From the NCBI GenBank assembly GCA_050178385.1, contig JBFXGD010000043.1:1-22634 (forward strand): a stretch of DNA of 22,634 nt, given 5' to 3'. Of the stretch, positions 3,162-22,277 are shown piece after piece. Each line of letters starts with the position of its first letter. Position 1 is the stretch's first letter. A program made the translations under genes and the position numbers. The notes below the pieces were generated by a model that was not told the DNA's origin, searched no databases, and worked only from the letters and a program-made list of their open reading frames with translations. Source of the stretch: Calditrichaceae bacterium (lineage in GTDB: Bacteria > Calditrichota > Calditrichia > Calditrichales > JBFXGD01).

Positions 3162-4844
3162 ATGTCTAATACAGAAGGCAAGGGATCAATTCTTCTTAAA
3201 TTATTGATTCTCGTGTTATTTGTCTTGTTGATCGCGGTAATTATCATACCCGGAAGAATTTGGAATGAAGAAGAAAGCGAAAAAATAGAGGCTCAGAACA
3301 ATATGATGAGCATTTATGAAGCGGAAAGATTTTATCATCGTACAACCGGCGGATTTACCTCTGATCCGGCCGAATTATTAAGACTTGTGCATGATGATTC
3401 AACATTGGTAATGGCACAGACCACAGTGAATTATACACAGGAACTTGCTGGCCATATTGATGATTTCTTAAACATTGCTAAAATTAAAGCTGTGAACAAC
3501 ATTTCACAGAACTCTGCGAGTATTATTGAAGATTTTAATACCAATGCCCGATTCTTAATGACCAATGAAGAAATTAACAATGAAGCTGAAAATTTGAAAT
3601 TAAAATTATCAGTCCTGAATAACGACACGAAATATGAGAATTTTATCCTGACCGCAAACTATGTAGATTCGCTCATACAGCTCAGAAGGGATCTTTCCGA
3701 CTATACACTTCAGTCTGCCGCTTCAAGAGCAGTCGCAATCACGGATACTATCAACAAAATGATCTCAAGAGTAGAGTTTGATAATCTACAAAATGGATGG
3801 GCACCACTCTCATCAAGAATTAAAGATCTGGTAAAATCGATTAACCGTTCATCGATTAAAGATGTTTCCAATGTCTCTGACCGCGTAAAGGATTTTGATG
3901 CTAAGATAGATAAATCATTTTCCGAGATTTCAAAAACAAGCTCTGCTGGAGACACACAGAAAGTTCAGGAAATATCGGTAAAAATTGCTGCTACTTTTCA
4001 AAAATTCTTAATGGATTTCATCAACACGAGCAGAATTGCGCTCTACAGATTGTCGGAGGCCGATTCTATGGTCATGCATCTGACGGAGGCAAATTTTTAT
4101 AGTCCCGTGTCGCGCAAAATGTACTATATTACCATATTGGATGATTCCGGCGCCGTTAAAGTGGAAAGTCCGGAGTTGCTGGAAGATTTGAAATCTTTGA
4201 CCATGCCTATTGTTGAAAAGTCAAAAAGCCTACCAATTTTGCCGGCATTTAAAGCGTATGTGGATACGGTTAACGGCATCAAAAACAAATCCATGGCGGT
4301 GAAACAGGAAATTCGTAAGAACGTAGATATTTTTGTTAAAAACAGGCAAATTGAAGAACTTACAAATAAGCTTGCAGATCTGAGTGTGGTTAACTCATAT
4401 ACAGATCTGGACAAATTTGTAAAAGAAGTACCAAATTCAAACAGTTATAGTGACATCAAGCTTTATTCTGAAAATGCCCTCAGCAGCGTCCGGATATTCG
4501 ATCAGGTTTACACGGAAAATATTTTCGGGAACTTAGATTCACTTCACTCGGATCTGGTTAAGATTCTGGAAGAATATAATCAGCAGTTAAACGGAATTCG
4601 AAGGCTTCCGACCGGTGTAAAAAACTTTGATGAAGATATTGCGGCATTAAATAATTCATTTGGGAAGATTAAATCAATTTCCGGAGCTTCTGTTACCCCG
4701 ATCTTAAAATCGCTGGAGACTGAACTGGGAGAGGTGTATCTTTTTGCTTCTGAAGGTAAATCTGAAAATGAATACGGTCTGTTTAAGAAACAAATCGAGA
4801 ATTTCGGTTATATCTATAAAGACACCAAAAGCTGGGAAGAATAG
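3162..4844 (+). CDS. Large type IV pilin-like membrane-anchored protein with two internal helical repeats
   Basis: KG|SILLKLLILVLFVLLIAVIIIP resembles a class III signal with Pro at +22. It is followed by the pilin-like segment EAQNNMMSIYEAERFYHRTTGGFTSDPAEL. The CDS is well supported (GGAGG RBS); the product is inferred by eye. Confidence 0.6.
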   Translation: MSNTEGKGSILLKLLILVLFVLLIAVIIIPGRIWNEEESEKIEAQNNMMSIYEAERFYHRTTGGFTSDPAELLRLVHDDSTLVMAQTTVNYTQELAGHIDDFLNIAKIKAVNNISQNSASIIEDFNTNARFLMTNEEINNEAENLKLKLSVLNNDTKYENFILTANYVDSLIQLRRDLSDYTLQSAASRAVAITDTINKMISRVEFDNLQNGWAPLSSRIKDLVKSINRSSIKDVSNVSDRVKDFDAKIDKSFSEISKTSSAGDTQKVQEISVKIAATFQKFLMDFINTSRIALYRLSEADSMVMHLTEANFYSPVSRKMYYITILDDSGAVKVESPELLEDLKSLTMPIVEKSKSLPILPAFKAYVDTVNGIKNKSMAVKQEIRKNVDIFVKNRQIEELTNKLADLSVVNSYTDLDKFVKEVPNSNSYSDIKLYSENALSSVRIFDQVYTENIFGNLDSLHSDLVKILEEYNQQLNGIRRLPTGVKNFDEDIAALNNSFGKIKSISGASVTPILKSLETELGEVYLFASEGKSENEYGLFKKQIENFGYIYKDTKSWEE

Positions 4845-4870
4845 AAGTCTAATGTATAAAGAAATAAATG

Positions 4871-4897
4871 AAGGAGGGAATTTTCCCTCCTTTTTTT
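4871..4897 (+). terminator. Rho-independent terminator
   Basis: Stem GGAGGGA/TCCCTCC followed by T7 (4891-4897). Confidence 0.85.
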
Positions 4898-4913
4898 AAT
4901 TAGAAAACACATC

Positions 4914-5834
4914 ATGAAAAATATCTTTGGCATATCATTCTCAGACAACGGCATGCATCTGGTTCAATTCCGGACAGACGCCGGAGTTAGTCAATTTATA
5001 AAATCCAGCCACTTTCCCTATCCTTTCGATTTTCGCTTCGACAGTTTTATAAAAAAAGAAAATTTTAATAAATTAGCAGAATTAGTTTTAAAGGAAAAAA
5101 GCAGCCAGGCGTTTGATAATTTAGAGATTGATATCACCATTCCTTATAATTTCGCGTTTGTAAAAAAAGTGTCCCTTCCAAAGGAAATTATCGGAGATCT
5201 TCTGCGTGTTCAAATAGAATGGGAGTTAATTAATTATCTGCCGGATGACATCGCCAATTATAAAATTAACCTTGGGAATGAATTTGTTTTTGATGATTAC
5301 CGGGAGTTAATTGTAATTGCGATCAAAAGATCCGTAATCAGAGAATTAAATGAGTTTGCTCTTCAATGTGAAGGAAATCTTAGCTCATTGAGTCTGAATA
5401 ATTTCGCGGTTGAGAATTATCTCAATCGTCATGGCTTAAATGATCATCAAAAAAATCAGTTGATATTTAAGGTCAATCGTTACTCTATTGAAACACATTT
5501 TATGTTGAGTGGTGAATATTACACATCTTTTTTAGATAATATTAATACTTTAAGCGGACATCAAAATAAGGACCAAAAAGTTCTTGAGAAGATGGTAGAA
5601 CGGTTTAAGGAACTGGAAAATCTGTCCAATCAGTTATCGGCCGAAAGTCAAAGAGAGTTACAGGTTTATATCTATGGCCCCTCTGTTGTCGATTCAACGT
5701 TTGACCTTCTGCGGAAAAATTTTTCAATCGAGTTAAAAAGGATAGAAACGGATAAATATCCGGTTGATGTTCCAGACGGAATCAGTTATGTTGAAGCAAT
5801 CGGTTCTGTTCTTCGAAACTCGGATGATGCATAA
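4914..5834 (+). CDS. PilM-like (actin/FtsA-fold) protein, degenerate
   Basis: PilM-like pattern: FGISFSD, ITIPYNFAFVKKVSLP, QIEWELINYLP, LIVIAIKRSVI, LSLNNFAVENY, VYIYG, C-terminal YVEAIGSVLR. Confidence 0.65.
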   Translation: MKNIFGISFSDNGMHLVQFRTDAGVSQFIKSSHFPYPFDFRFDSFIKKENFNKLAELVLKEKSSQAFDNLEIDITIPYNFAFVKKVSLPKEIIGDLLRVQIEWELINYLPDDIANYKINLGNEFVFDDYRELIVIAIKRSVIRELNEFALQCEGNLSSLSLNNFAVENYLNRHGLNDHQKNQLIFKVNRYSIETHFMLSGEYYTSFLDNINTLSGHQNKDQKVLEKMVERFKELENLSNQLSAESQRELQVYIYGPSVVDSTFDLLRKNFSIELKRIETDKYPVDVPDGISYVEAIGSVLRNSDDA

Positions 5835-5848
5835 ATTTGGAGGTATGA

Positions 5849-6979
5849 ATGGGAAAGTACAATCTTTTGGAAGATGACGAACTGTTTTCATCGAAGAAAC
5901 CGGAAGACAAGGAGACAGACGACAATAAAAAGACGGAAAAGGATGAAATATATTATGATGCTCTTGAAAAAGACGAGCCGATAAATATTGATGAGAGCAA
6001 AGATAAAAATACAGACCGATTCGAGCGACGTGAGGTAATTGATCTTACCAATGATTCAGAAACGTCCGGAAGCTTGTTTGATATTGATCAGGATGATGCG
6101 GCCCCGACAGAACCAAAAATTTCCAGATTTGATGAAGAGCAGCCGCCGGTTATGAAAGAAAAAAAACCTTCTTTTATTCCGGATGAAAGCTTTTTTGATG
6201 AAAAACCGGATGCCATCAACTATAAGCCGATACTGATCGGAGCCGGAATAGTGGCTTTGCTCTTTATCGTTTATCTTGGATTAAACCAGTGGGTTTTTAA
6301 CGATGATACCGGCAAGAAGCCCGCGGCTGAAATTGTTGAAGAGCAACCGGTTGTTTCTCAGGAAGAATTAGAAAAAGCAAGATTTCTTGGATTACTGGCG
6401 GACAGAACAGGAAATGAGCTTTCTTTTATCGGCAATATCCTAAACTTTAGCGGTCCAAGTATCAATCTGTCCAGTATTCTTCTTTATGACAATTCATTTT
6501 TGTTTGAAGTCTTTGGTAAAAGCAGAGATGACCTGGCGAAACTCAGTCTTGATCTGAAAAATAAATACAGAGACAAAAAATTTATTATCCTGTCTTCAAG
6601 TCAACGGCCAGGAAAAAACGGAGGTATTTTCGGGTTATATACAGCGGAAATGAATGGATCGCCCCAGGCCAAACAGCTGAGTTTAGAATTAAACGGTGTT
6701 GATGACGCCAGCGCGTGGCTGGCGGATCTTACGCGCAAAAACGGCTTAAAGATGAATTCAATAAAGAGCGGGCCTGTTGTATCACAAAATAATTTCAGGG
6801 TATATGAACTGGACGCCGTGATCTCAGGTACTCTTGATGGGTGCAAGTCATTAATGAATTCAATCGGATCCTCCGCCAGCAATATTAAAATACACAAATT
6901 GACATTATCAGCAGCAGATCAAAAAACATTCAAACTCAGTAAATACCAGCTCAAACTGATTGTACAGGTTTTTGTTTAG
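5849..6979 (+). CDS. Bitopic membrane protein, putative PilN-PilO-like fusion
   Basis: GGAGG RBS; N-terminal YNLL; acidic low-complexity aa ~8-125; TM helix aa ~128-146; two alpha/beta domains with PilN-like (aa ~190-268) and PilO-like (aa ~285-376) patterning. Confidence 0.55.
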   Translation: MGKYNLLEDDELFSSKKPEDKETDDNKKTEKDEIYYDALEKDEPINIDESKDKNTDRFERREVIDLTNDSETSGSLFDIDQDDAAPTEPKISRFDEEQPPVMKEKKPSFIPDESFFDEKPDAINYKPILIGAGIVALLFIVYLGLNQWVFNDDTGKKPAAEIVEEQPVVSQEELEKARFLGLLADRTGNELSFIGNILNFSGPSINLSSILLYDNSFLFEVFGKSRDDLAKLSLDLKNKYRDKKFIILSSSQRPGKNGGIFGLYTAEMNGSPQAKQLSLELNGVDDASAWLADLTRKNGLKMNSIKSGPVVSQNNFRVYELDAVISGTLDGCKSLMNSIGSSASNIKIHKLTLSAADQKTFKLSKYQLKLIVQVFV

Positions 6980-6982
6980 AAA

Positions 6983-7540
6983 ATGAGAATTATTTCAGGG
7001 ATTTACAAGGGAAGGCGCTTAAGAAGCAGCGATGATCTTTCAATAAGACCGACAATGGACCGGGTAAAGGAAGATATATTTAACATTCTGCAGGATTTTC
7101 CGGTTGGGAAAAGTGTAATTGATTTGTTTGCCGGAAGTGGAAATCTGGGGCTGGAGGCGCTTAGCAGAGGGGCGGAAAAAATTTATTTTGTTGAGAAAGC
7201 TCCGTCTTCCATAAAAATTCTAACATCCAACCTTGAACATTTAAAGATCAGCCCTAATCAAAATGAAATCATCCGGAATGACGCGATTAATTTTGCGAAG
7301 TCCACAAACCTCTCGGTTGATCTTTGTTTAATGGACCCGCCGTTTGTTTATCCCCCGATTCAGGAATTGGTCGATACGCTTTTTAGCCGAAATGTCATAA
7401 GCCAAACAGGAATCCTTGTCCTGGAGCATGAAACGACAAATCCAATATTGATGGAATCTTTAAACTATAATATTCTGAAACAAAAGAGAGTTGGCAGGAG
7501 TTTATTATCATTTCTTGAAAAGAGGAAAAATAATGAGTGA
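6983..7540 (+). CDS. rsmD: 16S rRNA (guanine966-N2)-methyltransferase
   Basis: MRIISGIYKGRRL, IRPTMDRVKE, DLFAGSGNLGLEALSRGA, DPPF. Conserved adjacency to coaD. Confidence 0.95.
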   Translation: MRIISGIYKGRRLRSSDDLSIRPTMDRVKEDIFNILQDFPVGKSVIDLFAGSGNLGLEALSRGAEKIYFVEKAPSSIKILTSNLEHLKISPNQNEIIRNDAINFAKSTNLSVDLCLMDPPFVYPPIQELVDTLFSRNVISQTGILVLEHETTNPILMESLNYNILKQKRVGRSLLSFLEKRKNNE

Positions 7541-8036
7541 TTTGAAAGTCGCCATTTATCCGGGAACTTTTGATCCGATAACTCTCGGGCATATAGATAT
7601 CATTGAACGGGCCAGCCGTTTGTTCGATAAGGTGATCGTAACCCTGGCGATAAACCAGACAAAAGAACCGCTTTTTACTGAATCTGAACGGATCGATATG
7701 ATCGAAAACGCATGTCAAAATTTTTCCAATGTTTCAGTGGATAAGTTTGATGGATTATTAGTAAATTTCGCATTAGAACAGAAGGCAATAGGAATTATCA
7801 GAGGACTGCGAGCGGTGTCTGATTTCGAATATGAATTTCAGATGGCCCTAATGAACAGGCAATTGGCACACAATATAACAACCGTTTTTCTTATGCCGAA
7901 TGAGAAGTATACCTATTTAAATTCGACTATTGTAAAAGATGTCGCAAGATTTGGCGGAAATGTTGAAAAATTTGTAACTAAATATGTTTCTGATAAACTA
8001 TTAGATAAAATGAAAGTTAAAGGTATAGGACAATGA
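7533..8036 (+). CDS. coaD: Pantetheine-phosphate adenylyltransferase
   Basis: AIYPGTFDPITLGHIDII and IIRGLRAVSDFEYEFQMALMNR. Start moved from 7491 to ATG 7533, which has GAGG upstream and overlaps the rsmD stop. Confidence 0.97.
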   Translation: MSDLKVAIYPGTFDPITLGHIDIIERASRLFDKVIVTLAINQTKEPLFTESERIDMIENACQNFSNVSVDKFDGLLVNFALEQKAIGIIRGLRAVSDFEYEFQMALMNRQLAHNITTVFLMPNEKYTYLNSTIVKDVARFGGNVEKFVTKYVSDKLLDKMKVKGIGQ

Positions 8037-9013
8037 CCGAATTTGTGGTTAAAATAAGAGAAAATGCAAAGAAAAGGAATTCAAACAGGATCGTTTTGCC
8101 GGAGGGAGCTGAGCCGAGAGTTGTTAAGGCGGCGGTTTTTCTAAAGGAAAACAAACTGGTTGAACCAATCCTGCTTGGCAAGGATGAAATGATTCAAGCC
8201 GTCGCATTGGAAAACGGAGTTTCCCTGAACGGTATTACAATTATTGATCCAAAAATATCACCCCAAAAAAAGGCCTATGCAGAACAATATTATCAGTTAA
8301 GAAAACATAAAGGAATGACCCTGGATGAAGCGGAGACAATTCTTGAAAGTGAATTGTACTATGGGGCAATGATGGTTCGGAACGGAGAAGCCAAAGGCGC
8401 TGTTGCCGGATCGGTTAATACAACGGGTGATGTTCTCCGCGCGGCAATCCAGATAATCGGATTGGCGGAAGGTATCAAGGCGGTATCAAGCTCATTTGTG
8501 ATGATACTACCCGACGGAAGGGAACTCGTCTTCGGTGATTGCGCCGTGATTCCGAATCCGGATGTTGATCAGCTTACAAGTATTGCCGTAAGCAGCGCAA
8601 AAACATATGAACGACTGGTAGGAAAAGAGCCAAAGGTAGCGATGCTTTCATTCTCAACAAAAGGAAGCGCCGTACATGAGGACGTAGATAAAGTGCTGGC
8701 CGCAACGGAAAAAATCAGGGAAATTAAGCCGGATTTGAAAATCGATGGTGAATTGCAATTTGACGCGGCTATAATTGATTCAATAGGAAAGAGAAAGGCG
8801 CCGGGCAGTCCCGTGGCCGGAAATGCAAATGTGTTTATTTTCCCGGACTTAGATGCGGGAAATATTGGTTATAAGATTGCGGAACGACTTGCTGGCGCGG
8901 AAGCAATCGGGCCAGTTATTCAGGGGCTCGCAAAGCCATATAATGATCTTTCGCGTGGCTGCAGTGTGGATGATATCGTTAATGTGGCCTGTATTTGCAG
9001 CACGATGTCCTGA
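8033..9013 (+). CDS. pta: Phosphate acetyltransferase (short form)
   Basis: RIVLPEG, FGDCAVIPNP, VAMLSFSTKGSA, IDGELQFDAAI, FPDLDAGNIGYK, NDLSRGCS. ATGA overlap with coaD. Confidence 0.95.
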   Translation: MTEFVVKIRENAKKRNSNRIVLPEGAEPRVVKAAVFLKENKLVEPILLGKDEMIQAVALENGVSLNGITIIDPKISPQKKAYAEQYYQLRKHKGMTLDEAETILESELYYGAMMVRNGEAKGAVAGSVNTTGDVLRAAIQIIGLAEGIKAVSSSFVMILPDGRELVFGDCAVIPNPDVDQLTSIAVSSAKTYERLVGKEPKVAMLSFSTKGSAVHEDVDKVLAATEKIREIKPDLKIDGELQFDAAIIDSIGKRKAPGSPVAGNANVFIFPDLDAGNIGYKIAERLAGAEAIGPVIQGLAKPYNDLSRGCSVDDIVNVACICSTMS

Positions 9014-15440: not shown

Positions 15441-17485
15441 TTAATGTTCCATTTTTTTTATTAAGATCATCTCTCCGGCTAAGGTTAACAAAGCTAAAGT
15501 TAAAAAAACATACCATAATTCGAATCCGCTTCTGGTATCAATTATCTGCTCATTTAAGGATTCATCTCCCTCAAATTTAAATACGCGCGATGTAATATTC
15601 TCAAAACTCTGAAAAGGACTTTGAAATTCTTTTGATGAAACATTAACCGCGAATGACTGAATAGGCTCATTGTCTGAAAACAAATGATAATGGCCGGGCT
15701 GATCAATATTTTCAAATTTAAATCTCAGGCCCGATGAAGTTTGTTCGGGCACGATATCAAGCTTATCCTTCCCCGGGGGTTGGACTGAATACGATTTCTG
15801 GAAAGAAAGATCAGGCCTCATTAAATAAAAGACATCCCCGGTATGCACCTGATCCACAGCATGCAGATCTTTTTGCGCTGCATAGTATAAGCTCCGGTAA
15901 AGCATCGGCACAAACAGACCCTTCACGGGAAAGTCAGTCCAGGACAAATCAAATAATGAACTAAAAAGAAATAATGAACCGGCCGCGGGGTCGGATAATA
16001 TTATTTCTGATAAAAAGGGATCCCCGTTTTTAAAACTCAATAACGTATTTCCACCGCTCTTTATTCTAAAGTACTGATATACTTTTGGCATATCTAACTC
16101 AGATGCATTTCCGGAAAAAAGGAGACTGAAAACAGGGTTTATAGTATCAACCGCACGTAATGAATAATATGATTCATTGATGTTTGTGGATTTAAAATCA
16201 ACAAAACAATTCTTTATTCCAAATATATTCATAACAGAATTTAATTCAGTGATTGTCATTTGATTGCCGGGGATAAGAACAATACTTTTCCCGTTCTTTA
16301 CAAAAGAAGCCAAACGTCCGGCGGTTTCATCGCGTATAAATCCGGGGTCATTCAGCACAATCAGATCAAATTTATCAAAATTCGCGCCCTGCCAGGCGGA
16401 ATAGCCAAGATGATCAATTTTGAATATTGTATTTTGAGAAAGCACATCCACCGCGTGGTTTAAGAAGGGAGTGGTCTGATTGTCAACAAAAAGGATGGAC
16501 AGGTTTTCAGGAACGTTTATAGAAAAATAGTAGTAATTATCAGCAGATAAATCATCATCTTCAAGTTCTACATGCAGAAGCTGCTGTCCGGTTGTGGTGG
16601 GTACAAAAGCCATCTCCACATTGTTAACTGCGGAAGGTTCCAGCTTTACCTGTTCCATTGCGACTCTTGTATTACCGGCATACAGGTTGACCGGCAAACT
16701 GATTCCGGCGTCATCGTTAAAATTATGCACACGGACGGTAAGATTGACGGGTTTGTCTCGTTCAAACAACTGATTTTGAACAATGACCGTATCAATACCG
16801 GCGTTTTCAAATGTATGGGTTGCGGATACGTCGATAAGAAAAGATCTTATGGTTTTATCACTGAAAAAGAATTGATGGAATCATGGAGCGCCTCCCGCGA
16901 AATTTGAAAATCACTGTATATGTATAATTCTTTGTTATAATTGGGATATTTTTCAAAAATTTCGGATGCGTTCCTTAAGACATTTGTGAAGTCGGGTGAT
17001 AAAAATGTCGGTTCCGCCAGTTGAGAGATCTCCTGAGTATTAACGTGAACAGGTGTGGTGATTTTTGCGGGCGTGATAAAAAATACACGATCGTCATGGC
17101 TAAACAAACTAATCTGCTCTTTCATATGAAGGAGCGCTTGTTCGAACCTTGTGGTTGAGCCGGCATAGCTGCGCATGCTGTACGAATCGTCCAGGATCAT
17201 AACCGCGGTAGTATTTGCCGGGGTTGTTATTGACGGGAGATCCCCGGTGATAGTCGGCCTTGTAAATGCTAAAACGATAAACAAAATAAATAAGGTTCTC
17301 AATATTATCAGTAAAATTTGATAAAGTTTAACCTGCCGAATTCTTTTACTTTCGAGAAGCTTAAGAAAGCGAAGAGAGCTGAATTCAATTTTTTTTGTCT
17401 TCTGCCGATTAAAAAAGTGGATTAACAGCGGAATAACCGCTGCAGCGAGCGCCGGTAATAGAATTGAGTTTAAAAAACTAATCAT
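15441..17485 (-). pseudogene. BatA-domain / vWA membrane protein split by a single frameshift (assembly error or true pseudogene)
   Basis: The 5' ORF 16847-17485 has a BatA N-terminus (IPLLIHFFNR...FSSLRFL...LAFTRP) and the MIDAS motif DDSYS. The frame of ORF 15441-16769 stays open up to 16880. One extra base within 16850-16880 joins them into a ~681-aa protein ending in a TM helix (ELWYVFLTLALL). Confidence 0.85.
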
Positions 17486-17683: not shown

Positions 17684-18448
17684 ATGTTTAATGAGACAGA
17701 CAACCTCCGGGTTCCGCAATATTCGTACCTGGCTCGCTATTATGACAGAATAATGAATCATGTCGATTATAAGCAATGGGCAGGTTACCTCAAGCCATTA
17801 TTTTCTTACAGCGATCTGAACGTGAAATATATTGCTGATATTTCATGCGGTACGGGCAAGCTGCTTCCAAATTTAATTTCTGAGAACTGGAAAATTTACG
17901 GAGGTGATTTATCCGCATCCATGCTCAAAAGGGCAAAATCTAAAACCCGGACATCAGGATTTTTGTATTTCTGCAGTGATGCTTCTGCTGCGGGGATAAA
18001 AAAAAACAAATTTGATGTCGTTTTGATGTTGTATGATTCAATCAATTATTTTGTTGAAGAAGAAAAAATGGCGATGCTCTTTGATGAAGTTTTCAGAATA
18101 TTAAAGAAAGGCGGTTTGTTTATATTTGATGTTGTGACGCCTGATATTTGTATTCAGAATTTTTCTGATTACCATGAAAAAGATTCCTGGAATAATTCCG
18201 GTTATGAGCGGCACAGCTGGTATGAAAAAAAGACCGGCATCCAATATAATGAGTTTACCATATATGAAGGTAACGATAAGTACACGGAATTACATGCTCA
18301 AAAAATCAGATCAATCGCCGAATGGAAGAAAATGCTGATACCGGGTCCCTTCGAAATAATAGCCGTTTATGACAATTTTACTTATCGGGATGCGGATGAA
18401 CGCTCTGAACGGGTGCATTTTTTATGTAAAAAGAAAACAGAACAATGA
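17684..18448 (+). CDS. Class I SAM-dependent methyltransferase
   Basis: YSYLARYYD, motif I DISCGTG, GGDLSASML, DSINY, LKKGGLFIFD. The start is either GTG 17669 or ATG 17684. Confidence 0.9.
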   Translation: MFNETDNLRVPQYSYLARYYDRIMNHVDYKQWAGYLKPLFSYSDLNVKYIADISCGTGKLLPNLISENWKIYGGDLSASMLKRAKSKTRTSGFLYFCSDASAAGIKKNKFDVVLMLYDSINYFVEEEKMAMLFDEVFRILKKGGLFIFDVVTPDICIQNFSDYHEKDSWNNSGYERHSWYEKKTGIQYNEFTIYEGNDKYTELHAQKIRSIAEWKKMLIPGPFEIIAVYDNFTYRDADERSERVHFLCKKKTEQ

Positions 18449-19098
18449 TAGAATTCTATAATGTTGCCGTGGATATCGACGGGAAATCAATTTTAAAAAA
18501 TATAACATTCCGAATGCTTAAAGGTGAATTTGTTTACCTGGTTGGAGCAAGCGGAGCAGGTAAGTCAACTATTCTCAGATTGATCTATATGGATTTGTTT
18601 CCCAGTGAGGGAATGGTGGTTGTTGAAAATTTTAGTTCTGCTAAAATAAGGGAAAAAGAAATTCCATACCTTCGGAGAAAAGTCGGTGTTGTGTTTCAGG
18701 ACTTTAAACTGCTGCAGGACCGGAACGTATTTGATAATGTGGCCTTTGCACTGCGTGTTACAGGTGTAAAGGGCGCCGAGATTAAACGAAAAGTGATGCG
18801 CGTACTTGCAGAAGTAAATCTTGGGCATAAGCGAAACCATTATCCGGCTGAATTATCGGGTGGTGAGCAGCAACGGGTGGCTATTGCAAGGGCTATTGTA
18901 AATGATCCTATTATTGTTCTTGCCGACGAACCAACCGGTAATCTTGATGATCAGTCTTCGCTGGAGATTGTAAAGATACTTGAAAAAATAAATCACCAGG
19001 GCACGGCAGTACTGATGGCAACGCATGATAACAATATTGTCAGCCGTTTTCCGAATCGCACAATTAAAGCAGATAAAGGAATACTCAGACAGGAATGA
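18445..19098 (+). CDS. ftsE: Cell division ATP-binding protein FtsE
   Basis: Walker [51 protein letters not shown]. Followed by ftsX. Confidence 0.95.
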
Positions 19099-19952
19099 AT
19101 TTCTGGTTTACAATTAAAGAGGGACTCAAAGGGTTTAAAAGAGCCCGATTGTCTTCAACGATAACAATAACGTCGATAGCGTTTTCGCATGTATTAATCG
19201 GTGTATTCATTATTCTCTCACTAAATCTGGACCAATGGATAAGCGAATTCCGTTCAAAAATGGAGCTTGAAGTTTTCATAGAATCCGGGATGAGCGAAAA
19301 AAGCGGACTGTTGATCAAAGACGCCATAGCCGGCATTGAAGGTGTGGCTATGGTATCCTATATATCAAAAGATCAGGCCGCGCAAAGATTTAAAAAGGAA
19401 TTCGGTCGTGATATATTTGATGTTCTGGACACCAATCCACTGCCCGCATCATGCACCGTTACAGTCACGGATGGATACCGAACGGCGCGATCAATCAGAT
19501 CGATTTCTGATAAAATCGAACAGATCGACGGAGTGGATGAAGTGATATATCAGAAAGAACTACTGGCATTAATTGATCACTATTTGAAAATAATTTATTT
19601 AGGCGGAGGAATAATTGGTTTATTTTTAGTTGTTATTGCAATTATTTTGTTATATAATACGGTCAGATTGACCATTTATGCCAGAAGGGATATTATAGAG
19701 ATTATGAATCTGGTTGGGGCAACCGATGCATTTATCAGGCGGCCGTTTTTAGTAGAGGGATTTATTCAGGGCCTTTTAGGAGCTCTCCTTGCCAATGTTT
19801 TCATCTATCTCATCACTATCACAATAAAATCTTTTATTTATCCATATGTAGTTTTCAAGCCGGAAATATATGTTATGTTAGTAGTATTTGGAATTATGAT
19901 AGGGTTGTTCTCCAGCAGGATGAGCATCTCAAAACATTTAAAATACATTTAA
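19095..19952 (+). CDS. ftsX: Cell division permease FtsX
   Basis: YISKDQA, NPLPAS, NTVRLTIYARRDIIEIMNLVGATDAFIRRPFLVEG, four TM helices. ATGA overlap with ftsE. Confidence 0.95.
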   Translation: MNFWFTIKEGLKGFKRARLSSTITITSIAFSHVLIGVFIILSLNLDQWISEFRSKMELEVFIESGMSEKSGLLIKDAIAGIEGVAMVSYISKDQAAQRFKKEFGRDIFDVLDTNPLPASCTVTVTDGYRTARSIRSISDKIEQIDGVDEVIYQKELLALIDHYLKIIYLGGGIIGLFLVVIAIILLYNTVRLTIYARRDIIEIMNLVGATDAFIRRPFLVEGFIQGLLGALLANVFIYLITITIKSFIYPYVVFKPEIYVMLVVFGIMIGLFSSRMSISKHLKYI

Positions 19953-20005
19953 ATGCTGTTAGTGCCAACCAACGGCAAATGGTTCAATCATTACAGGAGA
20001 GAAAG

Positions 20006-20275
20006 ATGAAGACAATTTACGTGGGCAATCTGTCTTTTAGCGCGACCGAAGATGAACTGAGGGATTTGTTCGGTCAGCATGGAACGGTTCATTCGGTTAA
20101 ATTAATAACTGATCGTGAAACCGGCAGGCCGCGTGGTTTTGGTTTTGTTGAGATGGATGACAATGAAGCCGACACAGCGATTGAGGCTCTTGACGGTGCC
20201 GATATGGGTGGGCGTAATATCCGTGTTAATGAGGCAAAAGAAAAAAAGGCGCCGCATCAGGGACGCCGATATTAA
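20006..20275 (+). CDS. RRM-domain RNA-binding protein (copy 1)
   Basis: RNP2 IYVGNL and RNP1 RGFGFVEM. Start set at ATG 20006 from the AGGAG RBS and alignment with the paralogue. Confidence 0.95.
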   Translation: MKTIYVGNLSFSATEDELRDLFGQHGTVHSVKLITDRETGRPRGFGFVEMDDNEADTAIEALDGADMGGRNIRVNEAKEKKAPHQGRRY

Positions 20276-20344
20276 TTTAGTATTATTGGATAACGGAATT
20301 TTTTTTTGCCGGGTTTGATTTTATTCGGGAAGTGGAGTTCATAT

Positions 20345-20658
20345 TTGCATTCATCTCTTCGTCATCAATGCTGATTAAAAGATACCTCATTGGTTTTTCT
20401 TTTGATTTGGAATCCAGATAGATTTAGCGCCGAGTGATGAAGTATTTGGAGAACCTGTATATATTTATATCAGGTCTGAATGTAATCCCAAATTTTGCTG
20501 CGTAAATACCAACTTGGCAAAATGACGATTGAGACATAAAGAGAGTGTGTATGTTGAGTAATTCCGCGGAATTTTTGCCGCGGAAATGTTAGATGATTCA
20601 TTGGTTCGATTGGGCCGCACCGCGTTCGCATCCGGGCTGATGAGAAGTTATTACATTT
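20345..20658 (+). ncRNA. Candidate structured RNA (leader of RRM copy 2 or a standalone ncRNA)
   Basis: A series of nested helices with many G-U pairs found by eye, and no ORF in the track across it. Family not recognised. Confidence 0.5.
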
Positions 20659-20674
20659 ACAGGAGTTCAGAGTT

Positions 20675-20950
20675 ATGAAGACAATTTACGTTGGCAACCT
20701 GCCATTCAGCGCATCAGAAGATGATATCAAGGATTTATTCGCACAGCATGGCAAAGTTCTTTCAGTGAAACTGGTGACTGACCGGGAAACAGGCAGAGCC
20801 AGAGGATTCGGTTTTGTTGAAATGGACAAAGATGATGCTGATCAGGCAATTGAAGCATTGAATGACTTCGAGTTTGGCGGCAGGAACCTGCGCGTAAACG
20901 AAGCGAAGGAAAAAAAGGATGATCGCGGTGGCAGAGGCCGTCGTTACTAA
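20675..20950 (+). CDS. RRM-domain RNA-binding protein (copy 2)
   Basis: IYVGNL, RGFGFVEM, short RGG-type tail, AGGAG RBS at 20661-20665. Confidence 0.95.
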   Translation: MKTIYVGNLPFSASEDDIKDLFAQHGKVLSVKLVTDRETGRARGFGFVEMDKDDADQAIEALNDFEFGGRNLRVNEAKEKKDDRGGRGRRY

Positions 20951-20992
20951 AAAGAACGATTGAGTATTGCTGACAAAAATTGATCCAGAATC

Positions 20993-21062
20993 GTCTGCGG
21001 ATTTTTAGAATGTTTTACATTTTGAAATTCTGCAGACTTTCCTGATCTAAATAAAAGATCAG
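20993..21062 (+). terminator. Tandem hairpins after RRM copy 2 (terminator or mRNA stabiliser)
   Basis: A ~20-bp hairpin GTCTGCGGA...TCTGCAGAC (20993-21037) followed by TTT, then CTGATCT/AGATCAG (21042-21062) followed by ATTTTATT. Confidence 0.55.
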
Positions 21063-21187
21063 ATTTTATTCAGTCTATAATCTTCATTGCAATCTACCGC
21101 TGAAATGGATAAAATCCAGTTTGTCTTCATGGTAACATGCCGCCGACATGGTCTGTATCTTTGAAGTTATTCCGGAATCTAATAATC

Positions 21188-21216
21188 TTGACAGATCAGA
21201 TCATACATTTTATATT
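21188..21216 (+). promoter_or_regulatory. Sigma70-type promoter of hrcA
   Basis: TTGACA (21188-21193), 17 nt, then TATATT (21211-21216), 35 nt upstream of the ATG. Confidence 0.8.
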
Positions 21217-21251
21217 TACAGACTTATACAGATTAAATAAATGTCAGGATT

Positions 21252-22277
21252 ATGTCGTTAAAACTAAGAGAAAAATCCATCCTTCAATCGGTGATTCATG
21301 AATTTATCATGACCGCGAATCCGATAGGATCAAAAACGCTGGCGGAGAAAAGTGATACCGGGCTTGCGCCGGCGTCTATTCGTAAGATCATGGCTCAACT
21401 TGAAGATGAAGGTTATCTTGCGCATCCGCACACTTCCGCCGGAAGGATTCCGACGACTAAAGGATACAGGTTTTATGTGGATGAGATAATTCACCAGCGG
21501 CAGATCAGTAATGATCATAAGAATTTAATTCGAAGCGCCCTGGAGAATTTTAACGGCGATGTGGATCATCTGATGGAAGAGGTCGCGGGTATTCTGGCAG
21601 CCATATCGCGTCAATTAAGTATAGTGGTTACTCCGAAGTTTTATCAGGCGATATTCGAAAATATGCAGATTGTCCCCCTGTCATCGGATAAATGGCTGGT
21701 GATCATGACCGTCAGTTCTGGTCAGGTTAAGACAATACTTCTTGAGGTGAAGCAAAAAATAAAAAAAGAATCCATCAAACGCGTGCTTGTTAAAATCAAT
21801 CAGCGATTTTGCGGAAAGATGTTGTACGAGATTCGAAATTCTTTTGCCGCGGTGATGGAGGACTTTTACAATGAAGAAACCGGCCTGGTCAGACTTTTTA
21901 CCGAAAACGCTGACCGTCTGTTTGATTTTTCACGTTATGAGAATTATTCCATTGACGGGACGCGTAATATTATTAATCAGCCCGAATTTTCGGATATCAG
22001 CCGCTTCTCATCGCTTATTGAGATGATAGAAGATAAAGACATCATTATTCACTTTATGGGGAAACGCGAAGATCCCCCGGGGATAAAGATTACGATCGGT
22101 AATGAACACGCGGAAGAACAAATAAAAGACTGCAGCGTTATAACTTCAACATATCGCGTTGGTAATGTTTCAGGAGTTGTCGGTGTGATTGGTCCAACCA
22201 GGATGGCATATGGAAAAGTGATTCCTCTTGTCGATTATTTTGCGCTGGCAATCACGCAAAAACTAAATTTCGCGTAA
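21252..22277 (+). CDS. hrcA: Heat-inducible transcription repressor HrcA
   Basis: PIGSKTL, GYLAHPHTSAGRIPTTKGYRFYVD, ITIGNE, GVVGVIGPTRMAY. Followed by grpE. Confidence 0.95.
   Translation: MSLKLREKSILQSVIHEFIMTANPIGSKTLAEKSDTGLAPASIRKIMAQLEDEGYLAHPHTSAGRIPTTKGYRFYVDEIIHQRQISNDHKNLIRSALENFNGDVDHLMEEVAGILAAISRQLSIVVTPKFYQAIFENMQIVPLSSDKWLVIMTVSSGQVKTILLEVKQKIKKESIKRVLVKINQRFCGKMLYEIRNSFAAVMEDFYNEETGLVRLFTENADRLFDFSRYENYSIDGTRNIINQPEFSDISRFSSLIEMIEDKDIIIHFMGKREDPPGIKITIGNEHAEEQIKDCSVITSTYRVGNVSGVVGVIGPTRMAYGKVIPLVDYFALAITQKLNFA

Follow-up and report, generated by a model that had tools for sequence, protein, structure and literature searches.

Can homologs of pilin, PilM and PilN/PilO that are encoded apart from any pilus motor gene have a task of their own, or do they serve a pilus made elsewhere in the cell? 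The question is raised by three consecutive genes, here called A, B and C, at positions 3162 to 6979 of contig JBFXGD010000043.1 from a Calditrichaceae bacterium; the window analyzed is the whole stretch of 22,634 nucleotides. The established setting of PilM, PilN, PilO and the pilins is a filament machine driven by an ATPase. None of the open reading frames (ORFs) of the window is a motor gene of type IV pili (T4P), and the statement of the sequence-only reading that motor, platform, peptidase and secretin genes are missing here is correct. Our analysis makes it very probable that the trio is a separate, motor-independent module derived from T4P. It is composed of known T4P parts in an arrangement that we did not find described: full-text searches returned no description of the module, with supplements (competence and fitness tables) and subscription papers outside their scope.

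Gene A (3162–4844, forward strand; an ORF of 560 amino acids, aa) encodes a giant pilin-like protein. Its N-terminus has a class III-like signal, in which a leader ending between G8 and S9 is followed by a hydrophobic stretch, with a lysine at +5 and a proline (P30) at +22. Such a signal had been proposed earlier, and among the orthologs the G-S junction is kept in 37 of 38 full-length sequences, the proline is present in 37 of 37, and position +5 is K in 23, E in 13 and I in one (n = 37). The predicted structure has a long alpha1 and a discontinuous pilin head (residues ~35–78, 313–337, and 533–560) that carries two helical-bundle inserts (~80–305 and ~340–531), and the model predicts a pilin core in which alpha1 lies on an antiparallel beta sheet. 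Foldseek with the whole model gave no match at E ≤ 0.001, no pilin family was among the 25 of 40 families listed in a Pfam scan of the A alignment, and Pfam and NCBIfam scans with single sequences gave sub-threshold matches only.

Throughout the phylum (Calditrichota) the reading frames of A are intact and certain residues invariant. In the wider family, proteins are 153 to 744 aa long and inserts about 0–600 residues; the common features are the signal, P22, W26 and a C-terminal NHG-x-I-x-x-G-x-x-SW-type motif. This defines an unannotated pilin family with swappable inserts in Calditrichota and in KSB1- and Marinimicrobia-labelled genomes. In the Marinimicrobia-type proteins E is found at +5 in 43/44 and G, A or S at −1 in 0/44. 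Separately, lipoprotein-like proteins with two or three tandem small heads resembling the A-family core occur at L120:5997-6647 (titled Fermentibacteraceae), L159:5092-6039 (titled Aegiribacteria) and L147; the NHG-x-I-x-x-G motif is present in them and the pilin helix absent.

Gene B (4914–5834, forward; 306 aa) is supported as a PilM homolog by sequence. Its profile matches Myxococcus PilM (3jc8) with an E-value of 5e-7, or 1e-11 with a wider alignment, in line with the PilM-like character first proposed for it, and the PilMN fusion of the phylum's own type IVa pilus (T4aP) at 97%. A PilM_2 match at E ≤ 0.1 was found for 22 of 35 B members; window B alone falls below the Pfam cut-off, and KSB1-type orthologs exceed the PilM_2 cut-off. 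The phosphate-1 D-x-G nucleotide motif is not found in B, where GISFS aligns to GLDIG of 3jc8, and the phosphate-1 Asp is present in 0/55 B members; the T4aP PilMN fusions of the phylum also mostly lack it (3/22 have it by pattern).

Gene C (5849–6979, forward; 376 aa) encodes a bitopic PilN/PilO-like protein. The predicted layout starts with an NLL motif, which we take to be the INLLP motif of the PilN type, in an acidic, low-confidence and likely disordered segment (1–120), followed by a transmembrane (TM) helix (126–150), a further helix (171–198) and two alpha/beta domains (205–267 and 284–375). NL[LI] is present in 28 of 56 C members and a looser form in 54. C matches PilO with an E-value of 0.0036, and 11 of 36 members match T2SSM_b; domain 2 by itself matches PilO at 89.5% (E 2e-6) with agreeing predicted secondary structure, which supports a periplasmic, ferredoxin-like PilO homolog. 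Domain 1 showed no significant match to the PilN part of the phylum's fusion (hhalign 1.9%) and is PilN-like by motif and topology alone. The sequence-only reading, which had seen two PilN/PilO-like domains, thus holds for the NLL motif, the TM helix and domain 2, and not for a PilN match of domain 1; of the folds it expected, the pilin core of A and the two alpha/beta domains of C are predicted, while the actin-like fold of B comes from sequence. Complex prediction of C (118–376) with A (9–560) scored 0.00 in two runs without folded controls, which is evidence neither way.

Could these genes simply be the only ordinary pilMNO of the genome, as had been considered for this locus? This candidate was rejected, as another contig of the same genome (C17) holds a complete T4aP cluster: pilB, pilC, pilD, pilO, pilQ, pilT and a pilP-like gene are all there, together with a gene for a 597-aa PilMN fusion and four pilin-like genes, one of them major and three minor. 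The same set is present, in one cluster, in the four other genomes tested (G001, G002, G003, G007). The PilM-PilN fusion of this cluster (L046; G000:C17:8000-27999) is seen in 22 loci, and its PilB has a receiver domain of the response-regulator type at the C-terminus (E 8e-30). L047 (G000:C261), a second small pilin locus, consists of two pilin genes, followed by a gene for a 226-aa protein and an ABC ATPase gene.

The trio is also found where no motor was detected. Of the 86 phylum genomes, 74 have PilC, and in ten A occurs without a PilC match; in family f6, PilC was found in 3/10, A in 8/10 and B in 10/10. Searches of five genomes that are 91–94% complete (G024, G025, G042, G046, G048) found no PilC, no PilB over the cut-off, no PilD and no secretin; in the genome of the window, the prepilin peptidase and secretin genes are on C17. 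Of the five, G024, G025 and G048 carry the trio intact, and frameshifts interrupt it in G042 and G046; for G046 an assembly error is likely, since the neighboring gltA is broken too. A small ComEA-like gene is kept in all five genomes looked at for it (G024, G025, G042, G048, and G044).

Within the phylum, 80 of 86 genomes have A, 81 have B, and 38 of 41 have C, nearly always in single copy and before rsmD-coaD. The nearer loci have B and C in 20/20 and A in 19/20 (the remaining one at a contig end, and one of the 19 split). The A-B-C-rsmD order is kept in 20 of 21 distant loci, as expected for a syntenic unit linked to rsmD-coaD in relatives. None of the three genes was found in G020, a genome 97% complete.

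Beyond the phylum, a profile search with A against 1.84 billion representatives gave 504 matches at E ≤ 0.001, of which the best 150 were examined. A motif scan covered 80 of at least 120 loci, mostly with Neomarinimicrobiota titles, plus KSB1, Calditrichota and a few others. After exclusion of L087, L131, and L132 (no A match) and of L120, L147, and L159 (lipoprotein-like, no synteny), and with nine Calditrichota-size loci kept apart, 65 loci remained; as these were selected by motif, the proportions are not unbiased. Genomes labelled KSB1 or Marinimicrobia repeat the A-B-C-rsmD order; A is 168 aa or longer there, and B and C are often fused, the fused protein matching both B (96.7%) and C (83%). 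B or the fusion directly follows A in 61/65 loci, rsmD is present in 57/65, and the gene immediately upstream of A, within 900 nt, is ComEA-like (HHH_3) in 46/65. The operon order there is ftsE-ftsX-hrcA-grpE-dnaJ-comEA-A-B-C-rsmD-coaD, with grpE and dnaJ named by inspection.

In Bacteroidota-type loci, rsmD is preceded by the actin-like DUF3822, and this by an A-related gene. Of 81 such rsmD loci, 31 have the A-related gene, usually immediately upstream of DUF3822. A profile of the Bacteroidota A-like set, which was chosen by match to the A profile, recovers A of the window at 1.9e-6, 30 of 39 proteins of the A family and 0 of 65 canonical pilins; a class III leader was found in none of the Bacteroidota-type homologs. 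DUF3822 (PF12864) has no match in the genome of the window at E ≤ 1. DUF3822 is present in the B. thetaiotaomicron control, which does not figure among the genomes listed for secretin, T2SSE, T2SSF, A24 or N_methyl, and the DUF3822 member BT_3980 (PDB 3HRG) has a solved actin-like fold. According to the accessible text of a Bacteroides report, the DUF3822-RsmD block lies in the conserved neighborhood of the cardiolipin synthase gene clsA (10.1101/2025.05.12.653583).

Two options had been left by the sequence-only reading. An alternative alignment or minor-pilin module using a motor encoded elsewhere is weakened, because genomes in which no motor, platform, peptidase or secretin was found still keep the trio and because Marinimicrobia-type A proteins have no cleavage glycine; a repurposed non-pilus envelope scaffold fits better. 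For its function, our tentative choice is an old, motor-independent inner-membrane scaffold of T4P origin that takes part in DNA uptake alongside ComEA. PilM-PilN-PilO is a known inner-membrane complex. By analogy, B would bind the NLL motif of C in the cytoplasm, a contact suggested by that complex and by B and C being one protein in Marinimicrobia-type loci. C would cross the inner membrane, and its periplasmic domains would hold A. A is probably membrane-anchored, or forms a short stub at most, rather than a long fiber, since K is frequent at +5, whole lineages have lost the cleavage glycine and the head carries 400 residues of inserts. The inserts may set periplasmic reach or partners, and the module would work without a pilus motor of its own. 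The uptake role, which is based solely on gene neighborhood, is offered with the same reserve.

Several observations weigh against this reading. Gaps in the assemblies may account for single absences, since the genomes without a detected motor are incomplete and the T4aP genes form one locus; the f6 genomes are related to one another; and T4P are present in most carriers, by the PilC counts above and in 5/5 Marinimicrobia/KSB1-type genomes tested. G at −1 is retained in 37/38 Calditrichota A proteins, including most of the PilD-less ones. The parts of the trio can be lost separately, as reciprocal natural deletions: A is cleanly lost and B-C kept in G044 and G045 (L076 and L075), and B-C are lost and A kept in L115, L123, L125, and L161. 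The comEA gene is not adjacent to A in the window or in the nine Calditrichota-size loci and is missing from 19 of the 65 others (3 of them incomplete loci); its linkage may be mere travel with dnaJ, and ftsEX and the chaperone genes are linked to the trio as much as comEA is. On the Bacteroidota side, the likeness to A is limited to ~84 N-terminal columns (the C-terminal halves give 0.6%, not significant), and the sequence link of B to DUF3822 is weak (hhalign 4%, E 0.01 over 232 columns; HMM 0/57). The accessible part of the report on a Riemerella competence screen makes no mention of these genes (PMC8459023). An extension of the proposal to that phylum is doubtful: an ancient FCB-lineage module of pilin, PilM and PilN/O that separated from T4P and works with no extension ATPase, platform, peptidase or secretin might survive in Bacteroidota in the genes upstream of rsmD, the A-like one and DUF3822, as the missing inner-membrane/periplasmic part of pilus-independent DNA uptake there.

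The alternative that survives best, close to the uptake reading in weight though we consider it rather unlikely, keeps the motor-independent scaffold and gives it to envelope upkeep or cell division, B-C tethering A as a periplasmic helical arm with a core housekeeping function. This would suit the near-universal single-copy retention of the trio, its persistence without T4P, its housekeeping neighbors (ftsEX, hrcA-grpE-dnaJ, rsmD-coaD-pta) and the Bacteroides DUF3822-RsmD block near clsA. The immediate upstream neighbor, however, is ComEA and not ftsX in the 46/65 loci, and since the trio was not found in G020 and parts of it are lost in some lineages, it is not strictly essential.

An accessory role in the T4aP encoded elsewhere, though likewise a near competitor, seems unlikely. 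The PilD shared with the T4aP would then process A, and B-C, as an alternative alignment complex, would prime it into or onto the pilus; the retention of G at −1 and the E at +5 in 13/37 orthologs agree with this, as do the presence of PilC in most carriers and the fact that the one ortholog without the G-S motif is from G025, in which PilD was not found. The A-B gap holds an intrinsic-terminator-like hairpin followed by T7 (4871–4897, forward; −13.6 kcal/mol), and such an element is present in 16 of 20 loci of the same order; families further away, with A-B gaps mostly of 6–20 nt, do not have it. Because of this hairpin and T-run, A-B-C are probably not one uniform transcript, and the element suggests that more A than B and C is made in this order, a point in favor of the accessory role. 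The T4aP cluster, however, already has its own PilMN, PilO and PilP-like genes, the trio persists in genomes without a detected motor, Marinimicrobia-type A has no cleavable −1 residue despite the presence of PilC, and the Bacteroidota-type homologs have no class III leader. That the genes are T4P vestiges carried along in a housekeeping operon without working together, as the independent losses of A or B-C and the just 14–40% identity of B and C across the phylum might suggest, is highly improbable given the intact frames and invariant residues of A, the gene order kept in several phylum-level groups and the B-C fusions.

The scaffold proposed for DNA uptake is embedded in a housekeeping context. 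The stop of C is 3 nt from the start of rsmD (6983–7540, forward; 16S rRNA methyltransferase family, PF03602), the constant downstream neighbor, as had been noted from the sequence; coaD (cytidylyltransferase-like, ATG at 7533; 7533–8036) and pta (8033–9013) follow on the same strand. The ftsE-ftsX ... hrcA genes (18445–22277, forward), which start the ftsE-ftsX-hrcA-grpE-dnaJ-comEA block, lie ~11 kb downstream of the trio, whereas in KSB1-/Marinimicrobia-type loci the block is directly upstream of A. The contig of the window ends in a grpE-like ORF, and grpE-dnaJ-comEA-like genes open contig C121 of the same genome, which we infer to be its continuation, no overlap having been found; this suggests that the window holds a rearranged form of the KSB1-/Marinimicrobia-type operon.

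Other features of the window are recorded here. Two genes are divergent from A (113–2910, reverse): a TPR (RMD1-3-like) gene and a HEAT-repeat plus cyclophilin PPIase lipoprotein-like gene, the latter with its position kept in most loci of the window's order and of family f6. An apparent single membrane protein, presumably of the BatA/VWA type, is split into ORFs of 212 and 442 aa in different frames (15441–17485, reverse) by a frameshift or assembly error. Two similar RRM-type RNA-binding genes, named by inspection, stand in tandem between ftsX and hrcA (19979–20275 and 20675–20950, forward).

A core, vertically kept copy that outlives its motor would show PilM/N/O and pilin parts doing a job of their own. 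For DUF3822/BT_3980, whose structure is solved but has no assigned function, it would also provide a lead that can be tested, as it would for DNA uptake in Bacteroidota without recognizable pilus genes.

How does the trio compare with known systems? In the accessible text of one account, the generic type IV filament consists of an ATPase, an inner-membrane platform and a major pilin (PMC6668835). Neither an assembly ATPase nor a platform was found in the window or the neighborhoods fetched; in most carriers they are encoded elsewhere in the genome, and in five they were not found genome-wide. A shares with type IV pilins and pseudopilins (PilE 4noa, PilA 8tj2, GspG 5wda) the class III-like N-terminus with P22, the long alpha1 and a small beta head. 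It differs in its 560 aa, two helical-bundle inserts, frequent K at +5 and own C-terminal motif, and its family in the wide range of lengths and the loss of the cleavage site in some lineages; we take large minor pilins of the GspK/PilX kind to be its comparison group. The Bacteroidota locus has the same position before rsmD(-coaD) and an upstream gene related to the N-terminal region of A, but no C homolog was seen there and no class III leader, and orthology of B and DUF3822 is not established by sequence. The type II secretion system (T2SS) has no counterpart of its GspE, GspF, GspD or pseudopilin set at the trio locus, although the actin-like cytoplasmic domain and ferredoxin-like periplasmic domains of its GspL/GspM platform are shared, the B-C fusion resembles the GspL architecture, and weak matches were found to T2SSL (3/35) besides those to T2SSM_b. 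Compared with the T4aP alignment subcomplex, PilM-PilN-PilO(-PilP), the trio has both periplasmic domains in one protein, after a long acidic tail; it is without pilP, pilQ and the phosphate-1 Asp, is kept without a motor, and stands beside a dedicated second set in the T4aP cluster. What it has in common with the Myxococcus complex (3jc8) is the PilM homolog B, the single TM helix and PilO-matching domain of C, and the order of M followed by N/O.

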